This document shows positions 7,333-62,009 of a DNA stretch of 64,000 bases, in pieces. Both the position numbers and the translations under genes were made by a program. Position 1 is the stretch's first letter. Each line of letters begins with the position of its first letter. Under the pieces are notes generated by a model. It had not been told where the DNA came from. It searched no databases and worked only from the letters and a program-made list of their open reading frames with translations. The stretch comes from a virus (lineage: Duplodnaviria; Caudoviricetes), in IMG/VR virus record IMGVR_UViG_3300025915_000014, positions 18,522 through 82,521 of that record; one strand, given 5' to 3'.

Positions 7333-8385
7333 CTAGTACGGGTACCGCTTGAAGTTGATGAACAGGTTCAGATAGACCCCGTTCCTGGTCCCGAGGTCCC
7401 CGAGGTGCAGCGCCGGGTTGAGCATGTGCACCTGCGCCTGCCAGGGCTGCACGGTGCCGCGCATGGACGACGGGATGCTCCAGGTGCCGCCGAGCGGGAT
7501 GACGAACTGCTGCGGACCCGGCCCGGCCGCCTGATCCGCGGACACGTTCTCATCCCACATGATCGTCGGCGTGGTGTTGCCGGTGCCGGAGCCGACCCGG
7601 AACCGGAACTCGCCCCAGGTGTCGTTGTTGTACTGCGGGTTGAAGGTTCCGAAGATGTCGCACTCGACCGCCCAGTCGGGGATGGGCACCGAGAACACCC
7701 CGCCCGCGGGCCAGTCGGTGAATGCGGTCGTGTTGTGGCTAAACGTGGTGACCGTCGGGAAATGGATTGAGTTTGTATATATCTGGCTGGCGATCGGCGG
7801 CGGTGACGTGGGGGGCAGCGTGTCGTCGATGATCCGCTTGCCGGAGAGGTCCACCAGGGAGCGCAGGTCGGTGATGTCCGCGGCCTGCACGATCGAGCTG
7901 TTGGTGCGCTTGATCCGCGCCAGGGTGAGCGCCGTCCAGGTGTTGTTCCAGCTCGTGACGTCGGTGATGTTCGTCGGGGTGACGCCCTCGATGACCCGCG
8001 CCTGCCAGTAGGGCCCGCCGACCGGGTCCGCCGGGATCGGCCACGACCCGGTGCCCACCCCGCCCGCGTACGGGTTCTCCACCCGCAGGATCACCAGGTC
8101 CGTACGGGATGCCCCCGGGGTGGGTGTGACCGGCAGGGTGAGCTGCGAGTCGAACTTGTCCGCGTAGGCCTCGAACGCGATAGCCGTCGCCCTGGAGTTG
8201 ATCACGAAGCCGCCGGGGTCGACGGTCACGAACGCGCCCGGGGTGCCGAGCGCGGACACCTTGCACGACGCCGAGGTGATCACGCCCTGCTGTCCGCGGG
8301 CGGCCATCCACGCCTGGAAGCGCGCGGTCTTGGGGCTATGCCGTGCGTCCTGGTCGATGTACCAGGGAACCCCGCCGGTGGTCAT
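7333..8385 (-). CDS. Minor tail protein
   Basis: 350 aa in tail operon; SRTDLVILRVENPY-type baseplate segment. Confidence 0.7.
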   Translation of the reverse strand: MTTGGVPWYIDQDARHSPKTARFQAWMAARGQQGVITSASCKVSALGTPGAFVTVDPGGFVINSRATAIAFEAYADKFDSQLTLPVTPTPGASRTDLVILRVENPYAGGVGTGSWPIPADPVGGPYWQARVIEGVTPTNITDVTSWNNTWTALTLARIKRTNSSIVQAADITDLRSLVDLSGKRIIDDTLPPTSPPPIASQIYTNSIHFPTVTTFSHNTTAFTDWPAGGVFSVPIPDWAVECDIFGTFNPQYNNDTWGEFRFRVGSGTGNTTPTIMWDENVSADQAAGPGPQQFVIPLGGTWSIPSSMRGTVQPWQAQVHMLNPALHLGDLGTRNGVYLNLFINFKRYPY

Positions 8386-8458
8386 GCTCTCACCCCTCCG
8401 ATCACCCGCGCGATCACGATGCCAGACAGACGCCGCCGCGCCGGGACGCCACGCGCGC

Positions 8459-17073: not shown

Positions 17074-17913
17074 TCAGCCCACCTGCGGGGCTTTGGGTGT
17101 CAGGAGCTGCACGATCCGGTACGGGATGGCGGTGCGCGCGACACGCACCTCCATGGCCGCCTCGGAGCCGCCCCCGGCGCCGCCGCCGACCCGCGGGCGT
17201 CCGCTCGCGCCCTGCCGGTTGGACCACAGCCATTGCAGCAGGTACTCGATGCCGCCGCGGGTGGACTCGCTGACCACTGCGGGCCCGGCCACGTAGGTGA
17301 CGCGGATCAGCCCCCACATGGCGGCCGGGCGCGCGCAGCGCAGGATGGAGAACTGGTCGGTCCAGATAGCGGGCGGCGCCACCGCCTCGATCACCGTCTG
17401 GTCGGGCTGGAGGCGTTCCATCAGGACCGGGCGGGCCACCGGCACGTTGGTCAGCCGGACCCCCTCATGCCAGCCGTAGGTGCGCAGCACCTCGACGAAC
17501 GTGCGCCGCGCGATGATCTCCCCGGAGATGCCCTCCGCGACCTCGGTGGCGCGGACGATCTCGGTGGAGATGGCCCGGTCGTGGCGGGTGTCGCTGTCGG
17601 GGATGTTCAGGATGTCCTTGCCCTCGGCCAGCGACAGGATCCCGACCGCCCCGGTGAGGCTGGCGTAGAAGCTGCCCTCGTAGGTGACCGCGGGCTGCTC
17701 GAACTGCCAGACGTAGGTGTAGGTGCCGGGCAGCTCGGGGACGTAGTCGAGCTGGTAGTGCCCGGTGACCGCGGGCGGGTTCAGCACGTCCAGGGTGGTG
17801 GTGGTGTCGTCGGGCAGGGTGAGCACGAGGCTGGCGGTGACCGCGTTCATGGGCGCCCCGGTGTCGCTGGTGACCGACGTCCCGAGCCGCACTACCTGGC
17901 CCACGCCGCTCAT
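17074..17913 (-). CDS. Head-to-tail adaptor with N-terminal Ig-like domain
   Basis: LSLAEGKDILNI..D..I..ATEVAE..G; VTYVAG; N-terminal beta-rich GHYQLDYVPELPGTYTYVW. Confidence 0.7.
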   Translation of the reverse strand: MSGVGQVVRLGTSVTSDTGAPMNAVTASLVLTLPDDTTTTLDVLNPPAVTGHYQLDYVPELPGTYTYVWQFEQPAVTYEGSFYASLTGAVGILSLAEGKDILNIPDSDTRHDRAISTEIVRATEVAEGISGEIIARRTFVEVLRTYGWHEGVRLTNVPVARPVLMERLQPDQTVIEAVAPPAIWTDQFSILRCARPAAMWGLIRVTYVAGPAVVSESTRGGIEYLLQWLWSNRQGASGRPRVGGGAGGGSEAAMEVRVARTAIPYRIVQLLTPKAPQVG

Positions 17914-20900
17914 GCGTTCCCCCCGTCCCACCAGTCCGCGTGCGCAACATCGACAGTCTGACCCACGACGCCCGCCGTGCCGGGCTGTGACGCGCCCCCG
18001 GCTGCGCCCGGTGCCTGCGCGCCCATACCGGCCGCGGCGGGCACACGCGCGGGCAGGGCGCCCGCGGCGGGGGCGGTGACGGCGAGCGCCCCAACCCGTC
18101 CGAACTGGACGAACTCGTGCACGACCAGCGCGCCGCCGCAGCCGCCGCGGGCCACCCCGGTGCCGGTGACGCGCCGCGGGTTGACGTGCAGCCCGCCGCC
18201 GGGCGCACCGTCCGCCGCCGCGGTACCGGTACGGGGCCGCACCATCACCCGCGGCCCGGACGCGACCACGGAGGCGACCCCGCCGCCGGTCTTGGTGTGC
18301 ACGGTGTGCGCGACGAAGACCTTGAGCCCGCCCGGGGCGCCCGTCGCCGCCGCGGTCCCGGTGCGCGGCCGGGTCATGCTCTCGGTGCCGCCCGCGCCGC
18401 CGCGGGCCGCCGCGGTCCCGGCCCGGTTCAGGATCGAGCCCGAGCGCCGCCCGTCCGGCGCACCAACCGCGGCGGCCGTCCCGGTCTTGGCGATGACGCC
18501 CGCAGACAGCACCACCCGGGCACCGGAGGGGGCCCCGGCGGCGGCGGCCGTCCCGGTCTTGGTGTGCACCGTCGCCCTGGCGCCACCCGGGGCGGCCTCG
18601 GCTGCGGCGGTGCCCGTCTTGCCGTGCACAGTCGACTTGGCACCGCCGGGGGCGCCCGCGGCGGCGGCCGTGCCGGACTTGAGGGCCGCGCCCGCGGACT
18701 GGACGACCTTGGCGCCGGACCCGACCGCAGCTCCGGCCGCCGTCCCGGCCTTGACGATCACCGCGGCGCTGGTGACCTGCTTGGCGCCGCCGGGCGCGCC
18801 GACCGCGGCGGCCGTGCCCAGTGCAGTGCGCACCGCCGCGGACGTGACGACCTTCGCCCCGCCGGGCGCACCGACCGCAGCGGCGGTGCCCGCCTTGACA
18901 ACAGCCCCCGCGCCCTGCACGGCCTTGGCACCGCCCGCGGCGGCGGCTGCGGCCGCGGTGCCGGTACGTGGCCGCACCATCGACTCGGTCCCGCCCGGAG
19001 CGCCCACTCCGGCCGCGGTGCCCGTCTTGGCGTGCTCAACCGTGCGGGCGCCGCCCGCGGCAGCTCCTGCGGCGCCCGTCCCGGCCTTGGTGATGGTCCC
19101 GGCCGATGTGACCGTCTTGGCGCCGCCCGGGGCCCCGACCCCGGCCGCGGTCCCGGCCTTGGTGATCGTGGTCGCCGACGTGACCGTCTTCGCCCCGTTG
19201 GCTGCGAGCGCACCCGCGGCCGTGCCCGTCTTGGTGACCGTGAGCGCCGACGTGACGGTCTTCGTCCCGCCCGGCACGCCGACCGCGACACCTGCACCGG
19301 CCTTGAGGATCTGCCCGGCCGTCTGGACGACCTTGGCTCCGCCCGGTGCACCCACCCCGGCTGCGGTGCCCGCCTTGGTGACGACGATCGCCGAGGTGAC
19401 GACCTTCGCGCCGTTCGCCGCGCATGCTCCGGCCGCGGTCCCGGTCTTGCGGTGCTCCAGGGTGCGGGCCCCGTTGGCGGCGGCGGCCGTGGCGCCAGTA
19501 CCGGTCTTCTGGTGATCGGCGGTGTGCGTGCCGCCCGGCGCGCCCGCGGTTGCCGCCGTGCCCGTCTTGCGGTGCTCGGTTGTGCGGGCCCCGTTGGCCG
19601 CCGCCGCCGTGGCCGAGGTTCCCGTCTTCTGGTGGTCGACGGTGCGGGCCCCGTTGGCGGCGAGCGCCCCCGCCGCGGTGCCCGCCTTGACGATGGCCCC
19701 GGCCGACTGCACGGCCTTCGGCCCGCCCGGCGCACCGACCCCGGCCGCCGTGCCGGTCTTCGTGTAGACGGCCGCGGAGGTGACGGCCTTCGCGCCACCC
19801 GGGGCGCCCACCCCGGCACCGGCACCCGTCTTGGGATGCTCGACCGCCTTGGCGCCGTTGGCTGCGGCAGCCGACGCCCCCGTGCCGGTCTTCGGGTGCT
19901 CGACCGCCTTGGCACCGTTCGCGGCTGCCGCCGAGGCCCCGGTGCCCGCCTTGGCGTGATCCGTGGTGCGAGCACCATTGGCGGCTGCCGCCGACGCCCC
20001 GGTGCCCGTCTTGCGGTGCTCGATGGCCCTCGCGCCGCCGGGGGCGCCGACACCCGCGCCCGTCCCGGCCTTGGTGACGGACACGGCCTTGGCGCCGTTC
20101 GCCGCCGCCACACCCGCCGCCGTGCCCGTCTTGCGGTGCTCGGCCGCCTTGGCTCCGCCGGGGGCCCCGACCGCTGCGCCGGTGCCCGCCTTGGTGTACG
20201 TCGTCGCCGACGTGACCGTCTTCGGTCCGCCCGGCGCGCCCGTCGGGACCCCGGCGCCGGTCTTGCCGTGCTCCACGACCTTCGGGCCGCCCACCGCGCC
20301 GCCGCCGACGCCGGTACCGGTCTTCGTCGACACCACCGGCGCCACACCCGCGGTGGCGGTCACCAGGGCGGCGACCCCACCGAACTGGCTGGTCGAGCCG
20401 TTGGTCTGGGTGGGTGCTATCGCGCCCGCCCCGGAGGTGAGCCCGTAGCACCACTCGTCGGCGCTCGGGGTGAACACGAACCCCGCCGGGGTGCCGGTGG
20501 CCGTCGGGGTGCCCGCACTGACCGAGCCCCGCCCGAAGTACAGCTCGCCCGCGCCCGCCGCCGTCACGCTCGGCCACGGCAGCGTGGTCGTGGTCGAGCT
20601 CGTCTCGGAGGTGCCCGCCGCGCCGTCCTGCGCCCAGGTGGCGGCCGTGCCGAGGGTGAACTCCTGCGGGAAGTAGCTCAGCACCTTGGCCGACATGTCC
20701 GCCGACCAGGTCGCGGTGACCGTCCCCCCGGTCACGGTGCTGGTCACGGTGCCCAGCCACACCTCATAGCAGCGGCCCCGCGCCGCCGACCCGAACCGGC
20801 CCAGGTTGGTCCAGGTGCAGCCGCCGCCGGACAGCCCGGTGACCGTGGCGGTGGCCGAGTTCGCGCGGATCCCGACCAGCACCGCGTTCCCAATGGCCGT

Positions 20901-22442
20901 AGTCGTGATCGGGAAGGTGAGCGCGGCGGTGGTGTCCGCGACCCCGGCCATGGACCCGACGGGGGTGATCCCTGCGCCGGTGACGACCTTGGCGCCGCCC
21001 ATGCCGCTGCCGCCGCCGCAGCCGCCGGTCTTGATGTAGGTCGCCGTCGCGGTGGGTGGCGGGAGCACCACCTCCGCGGCGATCCACCCGTTGACGGTGA
21101 TCCCGGCCGGGGTGGGGGTGACGGTGCGGGTGCCGGTCGCCCCGGCCGCCGGGATCGTCTCGACGTACACCGCGGACATCGAGTACAGCGCCCCGGCCTG
21201 CACCTGCGTGAGCAGCGTGGCGGTCGGGTAGGCCTCGGCGGTGCCGTTGCAGTCGGTGCCGAACGTACTCAGCAGTAACCCGTTCGCGACGCCGGTGGTC
21301 GTCGGCGCGGTCTGCGCCATCGCCGCGATGCGGGCCTGCACCGTCCACGCCGAGAACACCGCCGGGGTCCCGACGTTGTAGGTGCCCGCCTGCAACGCGA
21401 CCGCGATGCCCGTCCCGTCGGAGGCGGTGGTCGAGTTGAAGGTGAACTGGGAGGCGGCGACCTCGGTGGCGGTCGCGACAATCCCCCACGCCTTGACGCC
21501 CGGCGAGTTGTTCGCCGAGTTCGCGGCCTGCGCGGACAGCTGTCCGAACCCGGACGGCGCGGTCATGCTCGCCGGGACGTCGTCGGCGTCACCGTACTGG
21601 AGCACCAGCAGGTAGTCCCCGACCGCCAGCCCGGCCGGTTTCGGGACGGTGAACGACGGCTGCCCGGCCGCGGACTTGCTGCCGACCGCGTAGGAGCGGA
21701 TGACGGGCATGACGCGGTCGTCGAACGTCCCCGGCCACGGCTTGGGCTGACTGGTCGGTCCGAGGAACAGGCCCGGCGGGAAGAACGACTGCGGCGCCGG
21801 GTTCGGGGCCGCGGCGGGCAGCACCTCGACGGCGACCAAGCCCCAGTCGTCGTTGGTGAAGGTGTAGGACATCGTGACGGTGCCGCCGGTGGACGGCGAC
21901 GTGGACCCGCAGCCGTTCCCGGCACCCGAGTTGGAGTCCCCGGACTTCTGCCAGCGCAGGGTCTGCCCGGATCCGGTGGCGGTGTAGGTGGTGACCGCGC
22001 CCGACGCCATGGCGTCGATCACCAGGCCGCCGCTGGTCGTCCCGGTCACCGCCAGCGACGACGACGCCTGCACGGCACCGAAGTTCTTGAATACGGTCCC
22101 CAGCGCCCCGCCGCCGGTGACCGACACCGAGCCAGCGTTCATGGTCTTGCCGCTGGACGCCGGAGTGAGCACCACCGTGGACGCGCCCGCCGGTGGGTTG
22201 TTCAGCACGAACAGCGCCGCGAAACCACTCGTGCTGTTGGCCGAGTTCTGACGGCCCAGCAGCGTCATCGCCACGCCGCCATAGGTGGCCGTCGGGTCCG
22301 CCACGGGTGTTCCGCCGACCGCGCACGCCACGAGCACGTGGCTACAGCCCGCGCCCGCGGTGTGCGTCCAGCTCAGCGAGTTGCCGGAGAGGACGCCCGC
22401 ACCTGCCGAGCTAGGGCCGACAGCATCGAAGAGGACGGCCAT
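17910..22442 (-). CDS. Giant Gly/Ala/Thr repeat protein, putative virion fibre
   Basis: 1510 aa; about 3 beta-rich N-terminal domains then about 34 repeats of 20 or 24 aa. Confidence 0.75.
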   Translation of the reverse strand: MAVLFDAVGPSSAGAGVLSGNSLSWTHTAGAGCSHVLVACAVGGTPVADPTATYGGVAMTLLGRQNSANSTSGFAALFVLNNPPAGASTVVLTPASSGKTMNAGSVSVTGGGALGTVFKNFGAVQASSSLAVTGTTSGGLVIDAMASGAVTTYTATGSGQTLRWQKSGDSNSGAGNGCGSTSPSTGGTVTMSYTFTNDDWGLVAVEVLPAAAPNPAPQSFFPPGLFLGPTSQPKPWPGTFDDRVMPVIRSYAVGSKSAAGQPSFTVPKPAGLAVGDYLLVLQYGDADDVPASMTAPSGFGQLSAQAANSANNSPGVKAWGIVATATEVAASQFTFNSTTASDGTGIAVALQAGTYNVGTPAVFSAWTVQARIAAMAQTAPTTTGVANGLLLSTFGTDCNGTAEAYPTATLLTQVQAGALYSMSAVYVETIPAAGATGTRTVTPTPAGITVNGWIAAEVVLPPPTATATYIKTGGCGGGSGMGGAKVVTGAGITPVGSMAGVADTTAALTFPITTTAIGNAVLVGIRANSATATVTGLSGGGCTWTNLGRFGSAARGRCYEVWLGTVTSTVTGGTVTATWSADMSAKVLSYFPQEFTLGTAATWAQDGAAGTSETSSTTTTLPWPSVTAAGAGELYFGRGSVSAGTPTATGTPAGFVFTPSADEWCYGLTSGAGAIAPTQTNGSTSQFGGVAALVTATAGVAPVVSTKTGTGVGGGAVGGPKVVEHGKTGAGVPTGAPGGPKTVTSATTYTKAGTGAAVGAPGGAKAAEHRKTGTAAGVAAANGAKAVSVTKAGTGAGVGAPGGARAIEHRKTGTGASAAAANGARTTDHAKAGTGASAAAANGAKAVEHPKTGTGASAAAANGAKAVEHPKTGAGAGVGAPGGAKAVTSAAVYTKTGTAAGVGAPGGPKAVQSAGAIVKAGTAAGALAANGARTVDHQKTGTSATAAAANGARTTEHRKTGTAATAGAPGGTHTADHQKTGTGATAAAANGARTLEHRKTGTAAGACAANGAKVVTSAIVVTKAGTAAGVGAPGGAKVVQTAGQILKAGAGVAVGVPGGTKTVTSALTVTKTGTAAGALAANGAKTVTSATTITKAGTAAGVGAPGGAKTVTSAGTITKAGTGAAGAAAGGARTVEHAKTGTAAGVGAPGGTESMVRPRTGTAAAAAAAGGAKAVQGAGAVVKAGTAAAVGAPGGAKVVTSAAVRTALGTAAAVGAPGGAKQVTSAAVIVKAGTAAGAAVGSGAKVVQSAGAALKSGTAAAAGAPGGAKSTVHGKTGTAAAEAAPGGARATVHTKTGTAAAAGAPSGARVVLSAGVIAKTGTAAAVGAPDGRRSGSILNRAGTAAARGGAGGTESMTRPRTGTAAATGAPGGLKVFVAHTVHTKTGGGVASVVASGPRVMVRPRTGTAAADGAPGGGLHVNPRRVTGTGVARGGCGGALVVHEFVQFGRVGALAVTAPAAGALPARVPAAAGMGAQAPGAAGGASQPGTAGVVGQTVDVAHADWWDGGNA
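18120..20330 (-). repeat. Coding tandem repeat array (60/72-nt units)
   Basis: Consensus xK(T/A)GTAAxxGAPGGA(K/R)xxx(H or TSAxxx). Confidence 0.85.
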
Positions 22443-34538: not shown

Positions 34539-34599
34539 AGCCTGCGCGAGGGACGGAGGGCGGGTCCGCACATACCACCGCGAGAGGCGGAGGGCGGAC

Positions 34600-34715
34600 C
34601 CTGGGTATCGCGCGGCCGATTCCCGGCGTCCGGGGGGGGAACTTACGGCGAGGGTCGGGTCGCCCCCCTCCCCCCCCGCTCGATCGGACCCTCCCCCCCC
34701 AGGGAGGGCCTTTGA
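34600..34715. other. Candidate packaging (cos/pac) region
   Basis: Non-coding G/C homopolymer tracts between packaging HNH and terminase genes; position-based inference. Confidence 0.35.
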
Positions 34716-34769
34716 CCTGCGACTATACCATCCTGTAGATCCACTTGTGATCGTTCCACTGTGGACTGG

Positions 34770-35096
34770 CTAGGGATCTTCGTCTGTGATCCACATGGTC
34801 ATGTCTGGGCCACCATCCCAGAACGGCTTGGTTCCTTTCTGGATGTTGTGGATCAGATGAGCAGGTTCGAGATTCTCATCTGCATAAGGATCACCACCAT
34901 TAGCTATAGCTGATGTGTGATCAACGGAGAAGGACCAAGGATCTGGATGCTTGATCGTCAGGTCTATGGGAGCAGCGCATAGCGTGCAGATCATGGGACG
35001 TCGCGCTCGCACACGTGCGACAGCACAACGCCAACGATGTCCGCTGCGTACTGGTGGGTCAGGGGACGCACGCACCATGGGACACCACATCCACAT
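34770..35096 (-). CDS. HNH endonuclease (packaging-associated, gp74-like); start uncertain
   Basis: CTLC..PID..SVDH..GG..NLEPAHLIHNIQKG. Confidence 0.8.
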   Translation of the reverse strand: MWMWCPMVRASPDPPVRSGHRWRCAVARVRARRPMICTLCAAPIDLTIKHPDPWSFSVDHTSAIANGGDPYADENLEPAHLIHNIQKGTKPFWDGGPDMTMWITDEDP

Positions 35097-35170
35097 GTCG
35101 GGTAGGTGATCTAGCTGCTAGAGCGTATGTGCGTGGGTGGGGTGGCTGCGTGCGTGTGCGTGGGTACGTG

Positions 35171-35270
35171 CGTGTGGGCGTGTGTGTGCGTGTGTGGGCG
35201 TGGTAGCGCTGGGCTATAGGGCTGGCGCTAGTGGCTGCGCTACACCCACACACGCCCACACACGCCCAAC
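35171..35270. repeat. Imperfect inverted repeat of GT-rich arms
   Basis: Left arm CGTGTGGGCGTGTGTGTGCGTGTGTGGGCGTGGTAGCGC vs right arm GCGCTACACCCACACACGCCCACACACGCCCAACG. Confidence 0.7.
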
Positions 35271-35455
35271 GTCCCTATGCGCTGGTACGGCACGCCTGCA
35301 CCCGACACCACGCACCCAGCACCCAGCACCCATGCCCATGCACCCTGGACGCTTGGGCAGGCAGGGGTGCAGGCGAGGGGACTGCCTGGCGTACCGAAGG
35401 AGGGCGGCCGTCAAGGCGGGCCCTTGGTGTGCTGGCCCTTGGTGCTGGGCCCGGT

Positions 35456-35561
35456 AGATACACCGGCCCGCTACTTGAGTAGCGCTACTTCTATCGCCCC
35501 GCGGAGATACACGGGCCCGCGGCTGATGGGGAGGGGGAGATACACGCCCCCGGAGATACAC
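35456..35561 (+). repeat. Four direct repeats AGATACAC
   Basis: Copies at 35456, 35505, 35538, 35554; last three GGAGATACACG. Confidence 0.8.
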
Positions 35562-35583
35562 GCCTGCCGGGCCCACGTCGACT

Positions 35584-35612
35584 GGCGCGCCGGGCGCGCA
35601 CCCGGCTAAACT
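35584..35612 (+). promoter_or_regulatory. Promoter with palindromic operator (35585-35599) over -35
   Basis: GCGCGCCGGGCGCGC then ACCCGGC-TAAACT upstream of 35665. Confidence 0.6.
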
Positions 35613-35664
35613 GGGCGTCTACCAGGGGAAACGCCCCCGGACGAAGATCCATCGGAGATCCACT

Positions 35665-47834: not shown

Positions 47835-47902
47835 GACACGCCGAAGCGCGACACGCCGTGACACGCCGAGCGCGGGACACGCCGTACGAATGCGACACCC
47901 CG
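47835..47902 (+). repeat. Five direct repeats GACAC(G/C)CCG
   Basis: Copies at 47835, 47850, 47860, 47876, 47894. Confidence 0.8.
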
Positions 47903-56174: not shown

Positions 56175-56203
56175 ACGGTACGCGCCCGGCGCGCATAGCG
56201 CCA
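56175..56203 (-). promoter_or_regulatory. whiB promoter with operator (56180-56194)
   Basis: TGGCGC-17nt-TACCGT; spacer carries GCGCGCCGGGCGCG. Confidence 0.7.
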
Positions 56204-57214: not shown

Positions 57215-57394
57215 CTAGACGCGCCGCCACCACGGGATCCCCGCAGCCCGGTCGGCCTGCTCCGCCCGGCGCAGCCCGGCACGCTGCTGACGCCGCCACT
57301 TGCCGCCCTCACCCCGCGCCTCCGCGGCCCGCTCCTGGGCGCGCAGCGCCCGGTTCTCCGCGGCTGTCGCGTACCGCACCCGCCCCTTGGTCAT
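57215..57394 (-). CDS. Small basic protein
   Basis: 59 aa, ATGA overlap with upstream gene. Confidence 0.45.
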   Translation of the reverse strand: MTKGRVRYATAAENRALRAQERAAEARGEGGKWRRQQRAGLRRAEQADRAAGIPWWRRV

Positions 57395-57546
57395 CGCTGC
57401 CTCCGCTGTTCGCGCTTGCGTTTGCGTCCGGCGGCCAGCATCCGGCGGGCCTGCGCGGCCGGAACGTGGTTGTCAGGGCAGCCGCACGAGCGGCGCGTCT
57501 TGGTGGAGTCGTAGCCGCAGACCGGGCACTTGCCCCACAGCGTCAT
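57391..57546 (-). CDS. Small Zn-finger protein
   Basis: CPVC..CGC; start overlaps GntR stop. Confidence 0.5.
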   Translation of the reverse strand: MTLWGKCPVCGYDSTKTRRSCGCPDNHVPAAQARRMLAAGRKRKREQRRQR

Positions 57547-58418
57547 GGCGTCCACCCGTCCGTCAGGTGGGTCTCGAAGCGCAGCTTGAGCCCGGCCCCC
57601 AGGCGCACCACCACCGACGCCTCCAGCGGGCGCAGCCGTGCCGCCGTCACCATCTGGTGCGGGATCCGGTAGCCGGTGAAGATCCGCAGGATGTCCCATA
57701 CCGGGCCCGGCGTGGACAGCTCCAGCGCGTCCCGCTCGGCGACGGACGCTGTGCGGGTCGCCGCCTCCTCGATCACATCGGCGATGCGGTAGCCGATCGA
57801 GCGCAGCTCGCCCACGGTGCCGCACGGCCACGGCTGCATCGTCGGGTCCTCCACCGGGGTGCCGCGCACCAGGTCGTACGGCATCACCGAACGCTGCAAC
57901 TGCTTGGGCACCCCATCCACCAGCTTGACCATGTCCCGGATGAGCACGAGCGCGCCCTCCGGCAGGTCCAGCCGGGCCGCGTCCACCGCGTCCGCCTCCG
58001 CGACGGTGTAGACGGCGCGCACCCGGTACTGCCGCGCCCAGTCGGTGACGCCGTGCTCCTCGGCGAACGCCGACCACAGCGGCGGCGGCGTCCCCTCCGG
58101 TAGCCGGTCCAGGAGATCCTGCGCTCGCTGGTAGCGGGCCGTAGACAGGTGCACCACCTCCACCGGGGGCGCCACCTTGGTCGCGTACCCGGCCGCCTTC
58201 ACCACCAGCCCTTCGTGCACCAGCTCGGCGAGCGCCGCGGTCACCACGTTCTTGCTCAGCCCGGCCTGCTCGGCGAGATCCGCCTCGGACGGCAACGCCT
58301 CATCCGGGCGCAGCTCCCCCGCCCCGATCGCCTCACGAATGATCATGGCGAGCTGTCGGTACAGCGCCGGACGCTCCGGATGCCGGGAGATCGAGCGCTC
58401 ATCGAGATGCAGCGGCAT
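57543..58418 (-). CDS. GntR-family repressor with UTRA-like domain (KorA/KorSA/TraR type)
   Basis: LYRQLAMIIREAIGAGELRPDEALPSEADLAEQAGLSKNVVTAALAELVHEGLV..G; divergent from FtsK operon. Confidence 0.88.
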   Translation of the reverse strand: MPLHLDERSISRHPERPALYRQLAMIIREAIGAGELRPDEALPSEADLAEQAGLSKNVVTAALAELVHEGLVVKAAGYATKVAPPVEVVHLSTARYQRAQDLLDRLPEGTPPPLWSAFAEEHGVTDWARQYRVRAVYTVAEADAVDAARLDLPEGALVLIRDMVKLVDGVPKQLQRSVMPYDLVRGTPVEDPTMQPWPCGTVGELRSIGYRIADVIEEAATRTASVAERDALELSTPGPVWDILRIFTGYRIPHQMVTAARLRPLEASVVVRLGAGLKLRFETHLTDGWTP

Positions 58419-58488
58419 GCACGGATCGTAGCCCTGCACCCCTAACGGGTTACCGGGCTAGGCCCATAGGCCTGTACCCTCCGACAGC

Positions 58489-58641
58489 ATGACCGCGACC
58501 GCCCCCCTGCTGGCGCTCGCCCTTGCGGGGGAGGCCGCCCCGTGTGCGCCCCGACGCGCCGCCTCCCCCGCGCCCCGTCCGTCTGCTCCCACCACACCGA
58601 CGGCGTGCCCGGCCCCGACCGGCGCGCCGCCGGGCCCGTGA
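58489..58641 (+). CDS. Possible 50-aa Pro/Ala-rich first gene of transfer operon
   Basis: TACCCT-8nt-ATG. Confidence 0.35.
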   Translation: MTATAPLLALALAGEAAPCAPRRAASPAPRPSAPTTPTACPAPTGAPPGP

Positions 58642-58653
58642 CGGGAGCCGGTG

Positions 58654-59133
58654 GTGAGCCGCCGCCGCCACTCCCCGGGGGCCGACCTCGGGGTCGGGCT
58701 GGCGCTGTTGCTGGGCGGGATCGGGTTCCTGTTGGTGGGGCTGTTTAACGGGTGGGGTCCGGCGTGGCACTTCGTGGGTGGGGTGGCGGCGATGACCGGG
58801 GCCGGGCGGTCGTATCGGGCGGGTCGGCGGGTGCAGGAGCGGCGGCGGCGGAGCGGGCCCAAGCCGGTGCCGCGCAGCCATCGGTGGTCGGAGGCGTTGC
58901 CGTGGGCGTCGGAAATGTATGGGACCCCCCGGACGAGGCGGACCGGGCAGGGCGGGTCGTCGTCGGGTCCGCCGTGTAGCGCGGCGTGCCGTGCCTCGAC
59001 CGCGCCGCGGTCGTCGTGTAAGTGCTCATGCGGGGGGGCGACGCACGGCACCGCGGCGCGGAACGGGGGGACGCGCACCAACGGCTCGGGGAACGGGTCG
59101 GGGACGCGCACCAAGCGGAAGCCGCCGCCGTGA
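58654..59133 (+). CDS. Two-TM protein with C-terminal CxxxC..CxCxCGGxxHG motif
   Basis: Hydrophobic N-terminus; CSAACRASTAPRSSCKCSCGGATHG; stop overlaps FtsK start. Confidence 0.65.
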   Translation: MSRRRHSPGADLGVGLALLLGGIGFLLVGLFNGWGPAWHFVGGVAAMTGAGRSYRAGRRVQERRRRSGPKPVPRSHRWSEALPWASEMYGTPRTRRTGQGGSSSGPPCSAACRASTAPRSSCKCSCGGATHGTAARNGGTRTNGSGNGSGTRTKRKPPP

Positions 59134-60848
59134 TCGCCGTGCTGATCGTGCTCGTGCTGCGGTTCGTGTCCGGCCGCGAGCTCGACGGGCATCGCCGCAC
59201 CAACTCCACCTGGCGGTTGCCCGCGGGCGGGCCGCAGGCGGTGCTGGTCCGCGGCGGGCGGACGTCGTGGTGGGTGCATCAGTCGCTGCGCTACCGGGCC
59301 GGGGTCCGGCTCGGCGTCACGTCGGTGGTGTTCGGGTTCGGGTGGGGCATGCTGCACGACCCCGCGGCGACCACGCTGATCTCCCAGGTGGCGGTCGGGG
59401 TGGCGGTGATGGCCGGGCTGCGGACGCTGGCCTACCGGGTTGCGGAACGGGCGCAGCATCGGCGGCTGGCGCGGCTGCACCGCGCGCTGGCCCCGCAGGT
59501 CGGGTGGCCGGTCGCCGGGCGCCGCCCGGGGTCGTGGCTGAAGGTGCCGTGGGACTTCCTCGACGACCCGGACGCGCAGATCACCGTGAAGCTGCCCGCC
59601 GGGTACATCCACGCCGGGAAGAAGGCGGAGGAGGTGGAGCGAACCGTCGCCGCCGTGTTGGGGCTGCCCGACCCGGAGTTCGCCGATGACTACGAGCGCC
59701 GCTCCCCGCTGCTCATCGTCGGGCGGGCGTCGCCGCCGCCGCTGCTGCTGCCCTTGAGCGAGGTAGGTGGGTTGCTGGGGGAGACCGCCGACGGGGTGCC
59801 GCTGCTCGGGGTGGCCGCCCGGGATGAGCCGGTGACGGTGAACCTCGACTCGGAGTCCCCGCATGTGGCGATCTCCGCGGGCACCGGGGGCGGTAAGTCG
59901 GTGCTGATGATGAGCATGGCGGCGCAGGAGTTGCGCCGCGGCGCCCATCTGCTGATCTTCGACATCAAGCGGACGAGCCATTTGTGGGCGGCCGGGTTGC
60001 CCGGAGTCTTGTACTGCCGCACCCCGGAGCAGATCCACAACGCGTTGATGGCGTTGAGCGATGAGGTGGATCGCCGGTACGCGCTGATCGAGGCGGCGGC
60101 GGACCTGTCGGGCACGGTGGATCCGTTGATCGTGGGGCCGCGGTTGTTGATCCTCGGCGAGGAGCTGAACGCGACCATGCAGGCGCTGCACTCCTACTGG
60201 ATGCAGATCCGGCCGAAGGGGGCGCCGGGGCAGTCCCCGGCGTTGCTGGCGTGGGGGAAGTTGCTCTACATGGGCCGGGCCGGGCGGATGCACGTGCTCG
60301 GGGTGGCGCAGCGGTTGTCGGCGCGGGCCGGGGGCGGTGGGGACGCGCGCGAGAACTTCGGCACCCGGATTCTGGCGCGGGCGACGGCGTCGTCGTGGCG
60401 GATGCTGGCCCCGGAGATCCTGCCGCCGCCGCCGCCGTCGCAGATCCCGGGTCGGTTGCATGTGGTGGCGTCCGGGGCGGCGACGGAGACGCAGGCGATC
60501 CTGTGGACCCCGGCGGAGGCGCGGGCGTGGGCGTGCCCGGTCTGGTCGGAGGATGGGACCGAACCTAGGACGGAACCGGGGACAACGACCCGGGACAGCG
60601 CGCGTGAGCAGGCGATTCTCTACGGTGTCCCGACCCGGCTGGCGTTGCCCGCCGCGGCGGTCCTGGTGACGTTGCGGGAGGCGGCCCGCGATGGCGGGTT
60701 GTCGCACTCGTTCACCGTGGAGGCGTTGCGGAAGCGCGCCCAGCGGGATCCGGGGTTCCCGCCGAAGCGCGGCACCCGGTGGGGGCGCGGCGGCGCCTCA
60801 AACGTCTACGACGTGGCGGAGCTGCGGGCGTGGGCGGCGGCGCTGTGA
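59130..60848 (+). CDS. TraB/Tra-like FtsK/SpoIIIE DNA translocase
   Basis: N-terminal TMs; Walker A AGTGGGKS; LILGEELN; GRAGRMHVLGVAQRL; RENFGTRIL; C-terminal wHTH-like ALRKRAQRDPGFP..YDVAELRAW. Confidence 0.85.
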   Translation: MIAVLIVLVLRFVSGRELDGHRRTNSTWRLPAGGPQAVLVRGGRTSWWVHQSLRYRAGVRLGVTSVVFGFGWGMLHDPAATTLISQVAVGVAVMAGLRTLAYRVAERAQHRRLARLHRALAPQVGWPVAGRRPGSWLKVPWDFLDDPDAQITVKLPAGYIHAGKKAEEVERTVAAVLGLPDPEFADDYERRSPLLIVGRASPPPLLLPLSEVGGLLGETADGVPLLGVAARDEPVTVNLDSESPHVAISAGTGGGKSVLMMSMAAQELRRGAHLLIFDIKRTSHLWAAGLPGVLYCRTPEQIHNALMALSDEVDRRYALIEAAADLSGTVDPLIVGPRLLILGEELNATMQALHSYWMQIRPKGAPGQSPALLAWGKLLYMGRAGRMHVLGVAQRLSARAGGGGDARENFGTRILARATASSWRMLAPEILPPPPPSQIPGRLHVVASGAATETQAILWTPAEARAWACPVWSEDGTEPRTEPGTTTRDSAREQAILYGVPTRLALPAAAVLVTLREAARDGGLSHSFTVEALRKRAQRDPGFPPKRGTRWGRGGASNVYDVAELRAWAAAL

Positions 60849-61333
60849 ACGGCTCCCAAGTGTTGCTGCTGTCGCTGTTGGGCGCCGGGCTGTATGTGGG
60901 GGCGCGCGGCACGTGGAAGCGGCGGCGGAAGCGGCGGAGCCGGTTCGTGTTGGGCCGGTGGCTGCGGCGCGGGCCGGGCACCTGCTACCGGTTCCGGGTG
61001 CGGCATCCCCGCTCCGGGCGGGTGGTGAACGGCTACGTGGGACAGACCCGCCGCCCGGTGCAGGTCCGCATCGACGAGCACCTGCTCGGTACCGCGACCG
61101 CGGCCCCGAAGGTGTGGGCGGACACGGTCGTGTCCTGGGACGTGCTGTGGACCGGCACATGCACCCAAGGCGGGCTGAACTGGCGCGAACGCTGGTACAT
61201 CGTGTCGCGGCGCCCGCTCTACAACGTGCAGTGGAACACCGCGAACCGGCGGCGGATTCTGCCGTCGCGGGCGGCGCGGCAGCGGATCCGGCGGTCCCAG
61301 ACGGGCCGGAACGGGTGGCGGTGGGTGCCGTGA
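60845..61333 (+). CDS. Membrane-anchored GIY-YIG nuclease-like protein
   Basis: N-terminal TM; CYRF..YVGQT..RIDEH..ERWYI..PLYN. Confidence 0.7.
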   Translation: MNGSQVLLLSLLGAGLYVGARGTWKRRRKRRSRFVLGRWLRRGPGTCYRFRVRHPRSGRVVNGYVGQTRRPVQVRIDEHLLGTATAAPKVWADTVVSWDVLWTGTCTQGGLNWRERWYIVSRRPLYNVQWNTANRRRILPSRAARQRIRRSQTGRNGWRWVP

Positions 61334-61518
61334 CGGTGTCGCTGGTGAAGGGCGACGGCGCTGAGGTCAAGGAGCCGCTGCGGGCGCGGGCGGCGGCGGC
61401 GGTCGAGGACTGGGTCAACGCGATCCCGTGCATCGGTGACCTGTTCCCGGTGCAGTTCTGGTTGATCTGCGGGCCGCCGCTGCTGGTGCTGATCTTCACG
61501 TTGTGGACGCGGCCGTGA
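61330..61518 (+). CDS. Small membrane protein (Spd-like position)
   Basis: C-terminal hydrophobic helix; GTGA overlap. Confidence 0.55.
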   Translation: MTVSLVKGDGAEVKEPLRARAAAAVEDWVNAIPCIGDLFPVQFWLICGPPLLVLIFTLWTRP

Positions 61519-61548: not shown

Positions 61549-61577
61549 TACTGCCGTGCGCGCCAGGCGCGCATACT
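61549..61577 (+). promoter_or_regulatory. Promoter with operator (61558-61572)
   Basis: GCGCGCCAGGCGCG-CATACT-6nt-ATG. Confidence 0.75.
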
Positions 61578-61583
61578 TGGGTC

Positions 61584-62009
61584 ATGGCCGCAACCAGCAC
61601 CCCGGACCCCAGCCCCACCCGCGAGGGCGTGACCGTGGTCCCCGGCGTCCACGTCGGCCGCGACGACATCGTCACGCTGCCCCCCCGCGGCGGCAGGCTG
61701 CGGAGCTGGCGCCGCTACGACCTCGCCTACAACCGGGATCAGATGGTCATCTGGTCGGCCACGCCGCGCGGCATCGCCCGCAGCACCGTCGCCGGGCCCG
61801 AGCAGGCCGCCGTCTACATCCGCTCCACCGTGCACGACGACGAGCGCTACCACCGCGGCCCCACCGCGCTCGCCGTGTTCTGGCTGGCCGACGACCCCAC
61901 CGAGCGCTACGGCCACGGCTCCCGCGAAGAGGTCGCGCTGATCACCGGGATGTCCGAGATCGTCAAGGGTCTCGTCGCCCGCCCCACCGCCATCCCCGAG
62001 GAGCTGTGA
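61584..62009 (+). CDS. Hypothetical protein, leaderless
   Basis: 141 aa. Confidence 0.65.
   Translation: MAATSTPDPSPTREGVTVVPGVHVGRDDIVTLPPRGGRLRSWRRYDLAYNRDQMVIWSATPRGIARSTVAGPEQAAVYIRSTVHDDERYHRGPTALAVFWLADDPTERYGHGSREEVALITGMSEIVKGLVARPTAIPEEL

Follow-up and report, generated by a model that had tools for sequence, protein, structure and literature searches.

A TraB-type DNA translocase cassette in the genome of a tailed actinophage and its possible role in DNA transfer

Can a tailed phage that carries a DNA pump of the plasmid type spread without virus particles? By analogy with actinomycete plasmids it may, and a gene cassette in an uncultivated tailed phage raises this question. The IMG/VR virus record of this phage (82.5 kb) is about 91% complete and is not a complete genome; the window referred to below is the 64-kb stretch of it that was analyzed. 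The hosts are filamentous soil actinomycetes. The genome carries a full siphovirus-type set of virion genes (HK97-type capsid, prohead protease, portal, tail tube and tape measure) together with lysis genes (holin and GH25 lysin). The idea of a phage with plasmid-type transfer is not new. pZL12, a characterized Streptomyces plasmid-phage with a tra locus, has provided an experimental precedent since 2010 (PMC3583192, PMC4487206), and a role for the SpdB2 homologues of actinophages in the spread of phage DNA has been put forward by Thoma et al. 2015 (PMC4447253).

Organization of the cassette and its place in the phage genome

The genes were fixed by GC3 frame analysis and translations. A GntR/UTRA regulator gene is divergent from an operon whose start and stop codons overlap, and which encodes in this order a 2-TM Cys-rich protein (ORF A), a TraB/FtsK-like ATPase, a TM protein with a GIY-YIG nuclease domain (ORF C) and a small TM protein (ORF D). 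Gene calls, Pfam matches and GTGA overlaps thus bear out the preliminary description of a repressor gene divergent from a translationally coupled operon. The five genes that it named all stand, but it omitted three others: a conserved ORF of 50 codons (58489-58641, plus strand), which may precede ORF A, and two small genes for basic proteins of 59 and 51 aa (57215-57394 and 57391-57546, minus strand), located 3′ of the GntR gene on the same strand. The latter two were called on a second assembly (L005), in which positions 8086-8417 correspond to 57215-57546 of the window.

The regulator (57543-58439, minus strand) combines a winged helix-turn-helix (wHTH) domain with a UTRA domain, as in GntR/HutC-type proteins (Pfam GntR 2.4e-13, UTRA 4.9e-7). 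Its HTH shares 35% identity with KorA of pIJ101 (E 2e-6), and the protein shares 28% identity over 218 aa with the GntR protein pZL12.80 (E 3e-11) and 83% with its counterpart in a relative, L003. By gene arrangement and sequence, a GntR-type regulator gene of the Kor/TraR kind is found divergent from tra, and its product is a candidate Kor/TraR-like repressor. The divergent control region (58440-58650) holds the 50-codon ORF and an imperfect palindrome (inverted repeat I4, 58429-58460); it is 86% identical to that of L003, with an in-frame indel of 3 nt.

A 15-bp palindrome, GCGCGCCNGGCGCGC, recurs throughout the phage, with 11 copies in the window against 1.1 expected. This supports the earlier view that phage-type operator-promoters flank the cassette: one (56180-56194; repeat family D1/D5) lies to its left, and another (61558-61572) directly follows ORF D. 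The operon was correctly described as ending at 61518, but plus-strand genes go on beyond it behind this new operator-promoter, which opens the next phage transcription unit with ORF E (61584-62009) as its first gene. The GntR/ORF A intergenic region has no copy of the palindrome, and the GntR-type regulator of the cassette is separate from the phage-wide operator regulon. The extent of this regulon suggests a global repressor.

The cassette lies within phage DNA with no scar setting it apart, as had been noticed before: no att-like repeats were found around it, and the same module keeps its place in the second assembly and in three diverged phage contigs. The second assembly is identical where compared and extends 8 kb beyond the record on the right side. 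No fewer than four further phage-type contigs carry the module, at 67-88% protein identity and with varying neighbors, such as tail-fibre and holin genes in L004, or ThyX, WhiB and helicase genes in L097, which resembles lytic-type phages. The predicted membrane DNA pump, probably under the control of a repressor, is a conserved part of the phage's own genome.

The preliminary description had also proposed a hybrid of phage and AICE or plasmid. The gene content does not support this: a six-frame search of the 82.5 kb of the incomplete record (PF00589, PF07508, PF00239, PF01656) revealed no tyrosine integrase, serine integrase or ParA, and the genes recorded in the 8-kb extension of the second assembly include neither an integrase nor ParA. 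Since the genome is not closed, this absence is not proof. PHROGs matches included a replication-initiation protein and one that is excisionase-like. 'ParB-like' matches, not assigned to a particular gene, were also obtained and may belong to the DNA methylase. Lysogeny genes were not found in the six-frame search, so that any further route of transmission for a resident element is conjectural.

The TraB-like ATPase and the repeats in its linker

The central gene (59130-60848, plus strand) starts at a GTG codon overlapping the stop codon of ORF A (GTGA) and encodes a TraB/Tra-like dsDNA translocase of 572 aa. Membrane helices at the N-terminus are followed by one FtsK-type motor, then by a linker of variable sequence and, at the C-terminus, by a predicted winged helix. 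Pfam matched FtsK_SpoIIIE (4.9e-6; PF01580, 26.6 bits with a cut-off of 24) and DUF87 (1.4e-6). The Walker A motif GTGGGKS and the hhhhEE motif are invariant in 24 relatives. Hydrophobic segments occupy residues 1-19 and 79-97, and the AF2 model (pLDDT 78) shows long N-terminal helices. Residues 510-572, conserved across the family, are predicted to form a strand-helix-helix-strand-strand-helix unit (pLDDT about 70-89); this unit gave no sequence match in the PDB, and its modeled fold is that of a winged-helix DNA-recognition domain. TraB is predicted to be an FtsK/TraB motor of the hexamer type that is anchored in the membrane and ends in a winged helix.

The motor is closest to TcpA of the Clostridium perfringens plasmid pCW3 and to FtsK (PDB 6o1w, 6t8g), both in PDB profile searches (TcpA 3e-10, FtsK 8e-6) and in Foldseek (2.8e-16 and 2.9e-14), where EssC/EccC came after them and HerA-type ATPases further down. 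TcpA, however, works with a relaxase and the Tcp secretion apparatus, neither of which occurs in the present phage. EccC has three tandem ATPase domains, and FtsK, a chromosomal protein, differs at its N-terminus and has a long linker as well as a gamma domain that reads KOPS. An assignment to chromosomal FtsK or type VII EccC/EssC is not supported: the protein has 572 aa and a single ATPase domain, EssC/EccC rank below TcpA and FtsK, and every close relative is carried by a plasmid, a small contig or a phage contig.

With Tra proteins of actinomycete plasmids the ATPase shares 37-42% identity extending over the TM region, the motor and the wHTH domain. Together with the tree and the architecture, this identity upholds the assignment to the TraB/Tra type made in the preliminary description. 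The nearest relatives include the 'Tra protein' of pFRL6 (NC_023286) and pRL2-11-type genes, and the family is restricted to mycelial actinomycetes. This degree of kinship is reached only with plasmid genes annotated as Tra, and a literature search found no transfer experiments for the pFRL6/pRL2-11-type subfamily. Against Tra of pIJ101, BLASTP returned nothing, while hhalign gave 94.7% over 155 motor columns with similarity limited to the motor; for pZL12.71c, hhalign gave 53%, again in the motor only. In the tree the phage proteins form a monophyletic clade on a long branch, with sequences from Micromonosporaceae, Streptosporangiaceae and metagenomes and separate from the pRL2-11-type plasmid proteins. 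This grouping means that a Streptomyces host is not shown, and the label of a 'Streptomyces'-type cassette has to be dropped because the clade falls outside the Streptomyces plasmid clade.

Inside the linker between motor and wHTH domain, the gene carries direct repeats with a period of 12 bp (60553-60600, plus strand; units GGGACCGAACCT / AGGACGGAACCG / GGGACAACGACC / CGGGACAGCG). Lag-12 self-identity peaks gene-wide at the homologous spot of the linker in all five phage-clade genes, with 21/36 in the gene studied here and 25-33/36 in its relatives; at no position in the 64-kb window does it reach 29 or more of 36. The array of this phage is degenerate and weak (TRF score 37, not exceptional by TRF), and the peptide repeats encoded vary among the phage-clade genes. 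Plasmid homologues have out-of-frame 8-bp repeats at the same place of the linker (GGACCCAG six times, GCCTCACA eight to nine times and GGTACACA five times). In the classical systems, clt consists of direct 8-bp repeats in cis that are recognized by TraB (PMC4447253, PMC4170104). The linker array is, as judged from sequence, a candidate clt-like site; a slippage-prone, disordered linker could yield such repeats without any function.

Partner genes of the translocase

ORF A (58651-59133, plus strand) encodes a small membrane protein that begins with a hydrophobic hairpin and ends in a Cys-rich tail, whose Cys/His cluster (C-x3-C ... C-x-C-x-C ... H) is conserved. It belongs to no Pfam or NCBIfam family, is 54-74% identical in four phage contigs (alignment A5) and was seen only beside phage-clade TraB.

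ORF C (60845-61333, plus strand) overlaps traB by GTGA and combines a TM helix with a GIY-YIG-like domain. The GIY-YIG core is a beta-beta-alpha-beta-alpha fold with catalytic Tyr, Tyr, Arg, Glu and Asn residues. The Pfam GIY-YIG match was below threshold (E 0.12). The AF2 model has a pLDDT of 85.6 (about 98 in the core), and its best nine Foldseek matches are all GIY-YIG domains of UvrC (probability up to 0.99, E 0.045-0.23). Furthermore, across 40 homologues the residues Y48, Y64, G66, R75, E115 and N127 vary little or not at all. Conserved residues, predicted fold and UvrC matches together confirm that the gene after traB had been rightly assigned, and ORF C is predicted to be a membrane-tethered GIY-YIG-type nuclease. 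In other lineages (P0077, P0107, P0166) a GIY-YIG domain is fused to TraB itself.

ORF D (61336-61518, plus strand), established by the frame plot and its translation, codes for 60 aa with a C-terminal TM helix; a small TM protein does close the operon, as first described. No homologue was found in the other loci compared. Plasmid transfer loci contain no counterparts of ORFs A, C and D, which are therefore not the classical spd set. The membrane genes downstream of traB are not recognizable as spd genes, ORF C being the predicted nuclease and ORF D having no homologues in the loci compared. An SpdB2-like candidate is located elsewhere, about 7 kb downstream of the cassette and outside the window: a DUF2637 protein with four TM helices, a topology that agrees with published SpdB2, and with no similarity to SpdB of pIJ101. 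Its family adjoins TraB in L004, L097, L006 and pFRL6. New here are the TraB-GIY-YIG fusions elsewhere and the finding that a DUF2637 four-TM protein accompanies the module.

The cassette shares with pSVH1 and pIJ101 (TraB-clt-Spd-TraR/KorA; PMC4447253, PMC4170104) a single FtsK-like motor with a C-terminal DNA-recognition domain, direct repeats that may correspond to the loading site of those plasmids, a GntR gene divergent from tra and coupled small membrane genes. With pIJ101 Tra, however, only the ATPase core is similar in sequence, and the classical system has no nuclease partner. Plasmid loci of the pFRL6/pRL2-11 type resemble it in the linker repeat array and the DUF2637 gene alongside; they lack ORFs A, C and D, and pFRL6 has an extra TcpC-like gene.

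Possible functions of the cassette

There is, in our judgment, about an even chance that the cassette represents the one-protein system by which actinomycete plasmids transfer dsDNA, in a form that resides in a phage. This reading draws on the architecture and fold of TraB, on nearest relatives that are plasmid-borne Tra proteins confined to mycelial actinomycetes, on clt-like arrays at the same place across the family, on a divergent GntR gene as in pIJ101 and pZL12, and on a module conserved in phage contigs with DUF2637 beside TraB and with TraB-GIY-YIG fusions. Once GntR repression is lifted, TraB would assemble at the membrane or septal wall, load on phage DNA at the linker repeats and move the double-stranded DNA to the neighboring hyphal compartment or a contacting hypha; the DUF2637 protein might assist, and the GIY-YIG partner might provide a DNA end or act on an existing one. 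The phage would benefit in that an infection, or a resident prophage, could spread along and between mycelia without virions. Since integrase and partition genes were not found, spreading during infection is somewhat likelier than mating of a stable plasmid-prophage. Against transfer, sequence similarity to experimentally proven TraB proteins is confined to the motor, and a translocase paired with a nuclease also fits a defence role. The degenerate state of the repeats in this phage, the plasmid loci devoid of ORFs A, C and D, and the dissimilarity of the DUF2637 protein to pIJ101 SpdB likewise count against it.

A bolder form of the transfer reading, which we regard as rather improbable, makes the pump and the membrane-tethered nuclease an obligate pair: the nuclease would create or trim a DNA end from which the ring-shaped motor could export a covalently closed or concatemeric genome, and phages of mycelial actinomycetes, lytic-type ones included, would pass from compartment to compartment through a DUF2637 channel independently of virions. 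If true, the pair would supply an enzymatic step that is missing from the model in which one protein is enough for actinomycete conjugation and, with DUF2637, would be a new mode of phage spread.

The same pairing could instead form an exclusion or defence module, in which translocase and tethered nuclease destroy or expel incoming phage or plasmid DNA and protect the infected or lysogenic hypha. The obligate coupling of ATPase and nuclease, gene fusions included, resembles HerA-type ATPase-effector defence pairs; HerA-type ATPases do appear lower in the Foldseek list, the regulation is autonomous and moron-like, and plasmid transfer loci lack ORFs A, C and D. However, the predicted sequence-specific wHTH domain, together with repeats carried by the element itself, suggests that the motor loads on self DNA, and the closest relatives are plasmid Tra proteins; we consider this role unlikely. 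Less probable still is some other intracellular handling of DNA, such as clearing or positioning phage or host DNA at closing septa (phage genomes into spore compartments, for example), or a recent cargo with no role for the phage. Several cultured Streptomyces phages do have FtsK-like genes of no known role, which have been considered in connection with host development (PMC13587820; bioRxiv 10.1101/2024.02.16.580700), and phage Dagobah keeps the ATPase core only (309 aa). The TM anchor, wHTH domain and repeat array nevertheless point to directed transport of specific DNA, and a long-branched, monophyletic clade, syntenic across diverged phages, indicates that the module is not recent cargo.

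It is also unlikely, in our estimate, that the phage is a phage-plasmid that mates, i.e. an extrachromosomal prophage that TraB conjugates from the lysogen into a recipient mycelium, with virions as a second route; this is the strict form of the idea in the preliminary description. A cassette regulator outside the phage operator regulon is what one would expect of genes expressed in the prophage state, and the replication-initiation and excisionase-like proteins and the global repressor suggested by the regulon point the same way. Against this stand the integrase and ParA genes not found in the sequences searched and relatives such as L097 that resemble lytic-type phages. The precedent, for which such mating was shown, is pZL12/phage ZL12 (GQ919031; Zhong et al. 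2010, cited in PMC3583192 and PMC4487206). Like the present phage, it is a replicon of roughly 90 kb that encodes virions, comes from a mycelial actinomycete and carries a GntR regulator of the HutC type as well as an FtsK-like tra gene and genes adjoining it. It differs in having ParA, ParB and an integrase, which were not found here. Its TraA (pZL12.71c) is only distantly related to the phage TraB and is not its orthologue, ZL12 is not among the 20 matches listed when the capsid protein was compared with the phage collection by tblastn, and the pZL12 annotation, judged by itself, names no GIY-YIG partner. The acquisitions of tra by pZL12 and by this phage therefore look independent.

The cassette and its residence in a phage genome

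The IMG/VR record is a single sequence of 82,521 bp (the window being its bases 18522-82521) with a G+C content of about 71%; it is labeled 'linear', its CheckV completeness is about 91%, and no terminal repeats were found in it. It carries virion genes (tail proteins, tape measure, tail tube, HK97-type capsid, prohead protease, portal), recombination and lysis genes (RecE/RecT-type recombinases, holin, GH25 endolysin), and genes for a DNA methylase, several WhiB-like regulators and a haem peroxidase. The capsid protein is 55% identical to those of Gordonia phages. An independent second assembly of the same phage (ENA ERZ27264420, k141_3415609, 72,431 bp; here L005) is 99.8% identical across the last 14.9 kb of the record and extends 8 kb past its right end, where further operator-promoter copies are present. 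No overlap with the left end of the record was found for the end of the second assembly (L015) or for the JGI contig L016. Since the 8-kb extension stops short of that left end, the genome measures at least 90.5 kb and is not closed. Two further reading frames were observed: a 1475-aa ORF at 17910-22337, among the tail genes, which lies in DNA of up to 79% G+C and consists of tandem repeats of 60, 72 and 120 bp, and, some 1 kb past the window's right edge (L005:14951-15550), a gene for a 199-aa protein whose last 60 residues match RNA polymerase beta' (rpoC ~227-289, E 4e-8).

The gene boundaries of the cassette were set by third-position GC analysis and by translation, and both agree with the preliminary description of a GntR/UTRA regulator divergent from a translationally coupled operon. 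The regulator gene occupies 57543-58439 on the minus strand. In the product of ORF A (58651-59133) a hydrophobic hairpin is accompanied by conserved, clustered Cys and His residues; the genes of the TraB-like ATPase (59130-60848; hereafter TraB) and of ORF C (60845-61333) each begin in a GTGA start/stop overlap, and ORF D follows at 61336-61518. Between the regulator and ORF A lies a 50-codon Ala/Pro-rich ORF (58489-58641), conserved with an in-frame indel in L003, a diverged phage-type contig; it may be the first gene of the operon, and its product may serve as a leader peptide or be a small protein that is exported. The control regions of the two phages are 86% identical, in-frame indel included. 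Simple scans for sigma-70 promoters and for terminators gave no match in the cassette. The window holds 11 copies of the phage-wide operator-promoter palindrome GCGCGCCNGGCGCGC (15 bp), where 1.1 would be expected; as had been noticed before, copies at 56180 and 61558 flank the cassette, and none lies inside it. This distribution places the cassette between phage transcription units and predicts that it is under its own regulator.

The cassette is part of the phage genome. Its junctions are identical in the two assemblies, and the module is kept among phage genes in three diverged contigs: L003, whose TraB is 81% identical, retains the order WhiB ... GntR, ORF A, TraB; L004 (67%) has DUF2637, ORF A, TraB and ORF C beside tail-fibre and holin genes; and L097 has a TraB-nuclease fusion and a DUF2637 gene beside ThyX, WhiB and helicase genes. 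A search for att-like direct repeats around the cassette returned the operator-promoters only. We therefore rejected a separate element with att ends, in keeping with the first reading of the sequence. Nothing in the phage collection matched the cassette at the DNA level, and an IMG/VR pattern scan with TraB was likewise negative.

The TraB-like ATPase and its predicted partners

Pfam placed TraB slightly above threshold in both FtsK_SpoIIIE and DUF87. A profile built from 24 relatives matched in the PDB the pCW3 coupling protein TcpA (3e-10), FtsK (8e-6), TrwB and EccC. In the AlphaFold model (pLDDT 78) long N-terminal membrane helices are followed by a single motor domain, which a disordered linker (residues 472-509) joins to a C-terminal domain of the order strand-helix-helix-strand-strand-helix. 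Foldseek ranked TcpA (2.8e-16) and FtsK (2.9e-14) at the top, and EssC/EccC far lower. Among named genes, those most similar to TraB in sequence come from plasmids (37-42% identity) and include that of pFRL6's 'Tra protein', the 'pRL2-11' genes found on many Streptomyces plasmids and one gene of a Planobispora plasmid. In contigs representing one genome per species we found 131 relatives; the best 80 of these are all from Actinomycetota and nearly all from mycelial genera (Streptomyces, Actinomadura, Actinoallomurus, Streptosporangium, Planobispora, Actinoplanes, Micromonospora), with a few MAGs (e.g. Leucobacter, Kribbellaceae). None of the 80 exceeds 50% identity over the best aligned segment, and the near-full-length matches lie at 37-42%.

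A FastTree analysis of 109 rows, quick and with long branches, was used only for the unity and wider placement of the phage clade. It grouped the seven phage-clade TraB proteins together (support 100) on a long stem, nested in a 19-row group (support 99) with proteins from Micromonosporaceae, a Streptosporangiaceae MAG and metagenomes. TraB did not cluster with chromosomal FtsK or type VII ATPases, the outcome that would have refuted the first reading; the 19-row group lies outside the large Streptomyces plasmid clade, which leaves the Streptomyces-type assignment first given to the cassette without support. BLASTP found no match between pIJ101 Tra and TraB, hhalign aligned the two over the motor only (94.7%), and pZL12.71c reached 53% with hhalign. 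Judged by sequence, kinship with the experimentally proven TraB proteins appears weak.

ORF A and ORF C were seen only beside phage-clade TraB genes. The profile search with ORF C matched 257 cluster representatives, several of the matches being C-terminal domains of proteins of 587-817 aa. One of these, P0077, aligned over its whole length with the TraB family (hhalign 100%, E 2.5e-61) and carries the ORF C domain at its end; natural fusions of an entire TraB-family protein with the GIY-YIG domain of ORF C were found in P0077, P0107, P0166 and at L097:333-2429, where a DUF2637 gene follows the fusion. On another contig an ORF C homologue stands directly after a TraB-like ATPase of a different subfamily. 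In the ORF C model the core reaches a pLDDT of about 98 and is arranged beta-beta-alpha-beta-alpha; Foldseek's nine top matches to the model are UvrC GIY-YIG domains, and Tyr48, Tyr64, Arg75, Glu115 and Asn127 are conserved among 40 ORF C homologues. The fold, the conserved residues and the fusions with TraB point to ORF C as a predicted membrane-tethered nuclease of GIY-YIG type that would work together with TraB. The ORF C profile (alignment A4) also gave weak repeated streptavidin matches in the PDB (residues 56-128, best single-copy E 0.006), which we attributed to chance in view of the GIY-YIG fold predicted for ORF C.

Beyond the window, 7 kb downstream of the cassette (L005:18875-19633), a gene encodes a DUF2637 protein of 252 aa with four TM helices. 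In L004 the second gene upstream of TraB has a product 36% identical to this protein, and DUF2637 genes adjoin TraB in L097, in L006 (a further TraB locus) and in pFRL6. The four TM helices would fit the topology published for SpdB2 (PMC4447253); no sequence similarity to SpdB of pIJ101 was found.

Repeats in the TraB linker and elsewhere

According to published work, clt loci contain direct 8-bp repeats that TraB recognises (PMC4447253, PMC4170104). In the plasmid homologues, the DNA encoding the linker contains exact repeats, often out of frame: GGACCCAG six times in pFRL6, GCCTCACA eight to nine times in L020, GGTACACA five times in L024, ACTCCCAG five times in L035, and GTGACACAG four times in both L026 and L040. 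A conserved core, CACCWGGGGAAACAGGG, is flanked on both sides by these repeats, and exact out-of-frame 8-bp repeats surround it in seven plasmid tra genes (L020, L024, L035, L008, L026, L040, L022). An 8-bp period in a coding region cannot encode peptide repeats, which argues that the plasmid repeats act at the DNA level. The arrangement around the core looks like a family-wide clt architecture. In pSVH1, the clt lies in the 3' end of traB, with the TRS GACCCGGA.

All five phage-clade genes carry, at the homologous position, three to four units with a 12-bp period: GGGAC(C/G)GAACC in the window phage and L003, GGGACSAAC in L012, and three copies of TTGGGACAGACT in L004 and of TGGCAGAACCT in L011. 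The encoded peptides vary (GTEP, GTNA, AEPM, GTDF). Counting 8-mers with one mismatch in linker versus motor was too noisy at 71% GC, and exact repeats and lag-12 self-identity were used instead. In each phage-clade gene the lag-12 score has its gene-wide peak at the linker repeats, with 21/36 in the window phage and 25, 33, 30 and 31 in its relatives; across the 64-kb window a score of 26 is attained at only 19 positions, and one of 29 nowhere. The window phage's own array (60553-60600) is degenerate and its TRF score ordinary. Slippage in a disordered linker is an alternative source of such repeats; we judge the chances about balanced that the linker of the window phage contains a functional clt.

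Two other arrays were considered as clt and set aside, as they could not be tied to TraB. One consists of GACACGCC(G), in four exact copies and one degenerate copy within 70 bp (47835-47900), just upstream of the haem peroxidase gene, and may represent binding sites of some regulator. The other comprises four copies of GAGATACAC (35456-35560) in a 1.1-kb non-coding stretch (34540-35660) of lower GC than its flanks, which separates the terminase-side genes from the rightward early ones. GT/CA-rich arrays are mirrored on its two sides, the 8-mer AGATACAC is expected 0.5 times genome-wide, and a phage operator lies within it at 35585; the stretch is a candidate origin or packaging site.

Possible functions of the cassette

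We propose that the cassette would move phage DNA from one hyphal compartment or cell to another without virions, the likeliest of the functions considered, with about an even chance of being right. Strict phage-plasmid mating calls for comparison with pZL12 (GQ919031), a Streptomyces plasmid-phage of 90 kb that encodes ParA, ParB, an integrase and a GntR regulator and carries an FtsK-like gene flanked or followed by two associated genes. In our phage, six-frame searches of 82.5 kb returned no tyrosine integrase, serine recombinase or ParA, and none is recorded for the 8-kb extension. PHROGs gave matches to a replication-initiation protein, an excisionase-like protein and ParB-like proteins, the ParB-like ones possibly reflecting the DNA methylase. 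On a genome that is not closed, these negative six-frame searches leave the label 'AICE/plasmid hybrid' of the preliminary description without support, while its cassette and the residence of this in a phage both stand. We regard strict mating as unlikely. The pairing of a translocase with a predicted nuclease could also serve defence or exclusion, which seems scarcely more probable than mating, and some other handling of DNA is more doubtful than either.

The idea that phage DNA moves through hyphae has antecedents. pZL12, characterised as a Streptomyces plasmid-phage with a tra locus (PMC3583192, PMC4487206), already shows that such a locus can work in a phage, and Thoma et al. 2015 proposed that SpdB2 homologues of actinophages aid the spreading of phage DNA (PMC4447253). 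FtsK-like genes have been noted, without a role, in cultured Streptomyces phages (PMC13587820; bioRxiv 10.1101/2024.02.16.580700). The pZL12 precedent and the uncultivated state of our phage weaken the case, and what is new is a variant rather than a kind: a distinct phage TraB clade, a clt-like linker array and a partner nuclease that other loci encode as a fusion with TraB. Should the module indeed move phage DNA through hyphae, multicellular bacteria would be open to infection by more than particle adsorption. This would alter the view of plaque size, burst, receptor-loss resistance and gene flow among soil actinomycetes, which are the chief producers of antibiotics. The coupling of the TraB motor to a GIY-YIG nuclease also offers a testable lead on how a ring motor handles circular double-stranded DNA, to our knowledge an unsolved point of Streptomyces-type conjugation.

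Among cultured phages, neither ORF C nor the DUF2637 protein had a tblastn match in the phage collection. With TraB, the same search of 50,697 phage records found only Streptomyces phage Dagobah (MT711977, L002:2547-3476), in which a gene annotated as encoding a hypothetical protein specifies 309 aa with 37% identity to the TraB motor; it encodes the ATPase only, without TM region or winged helix.
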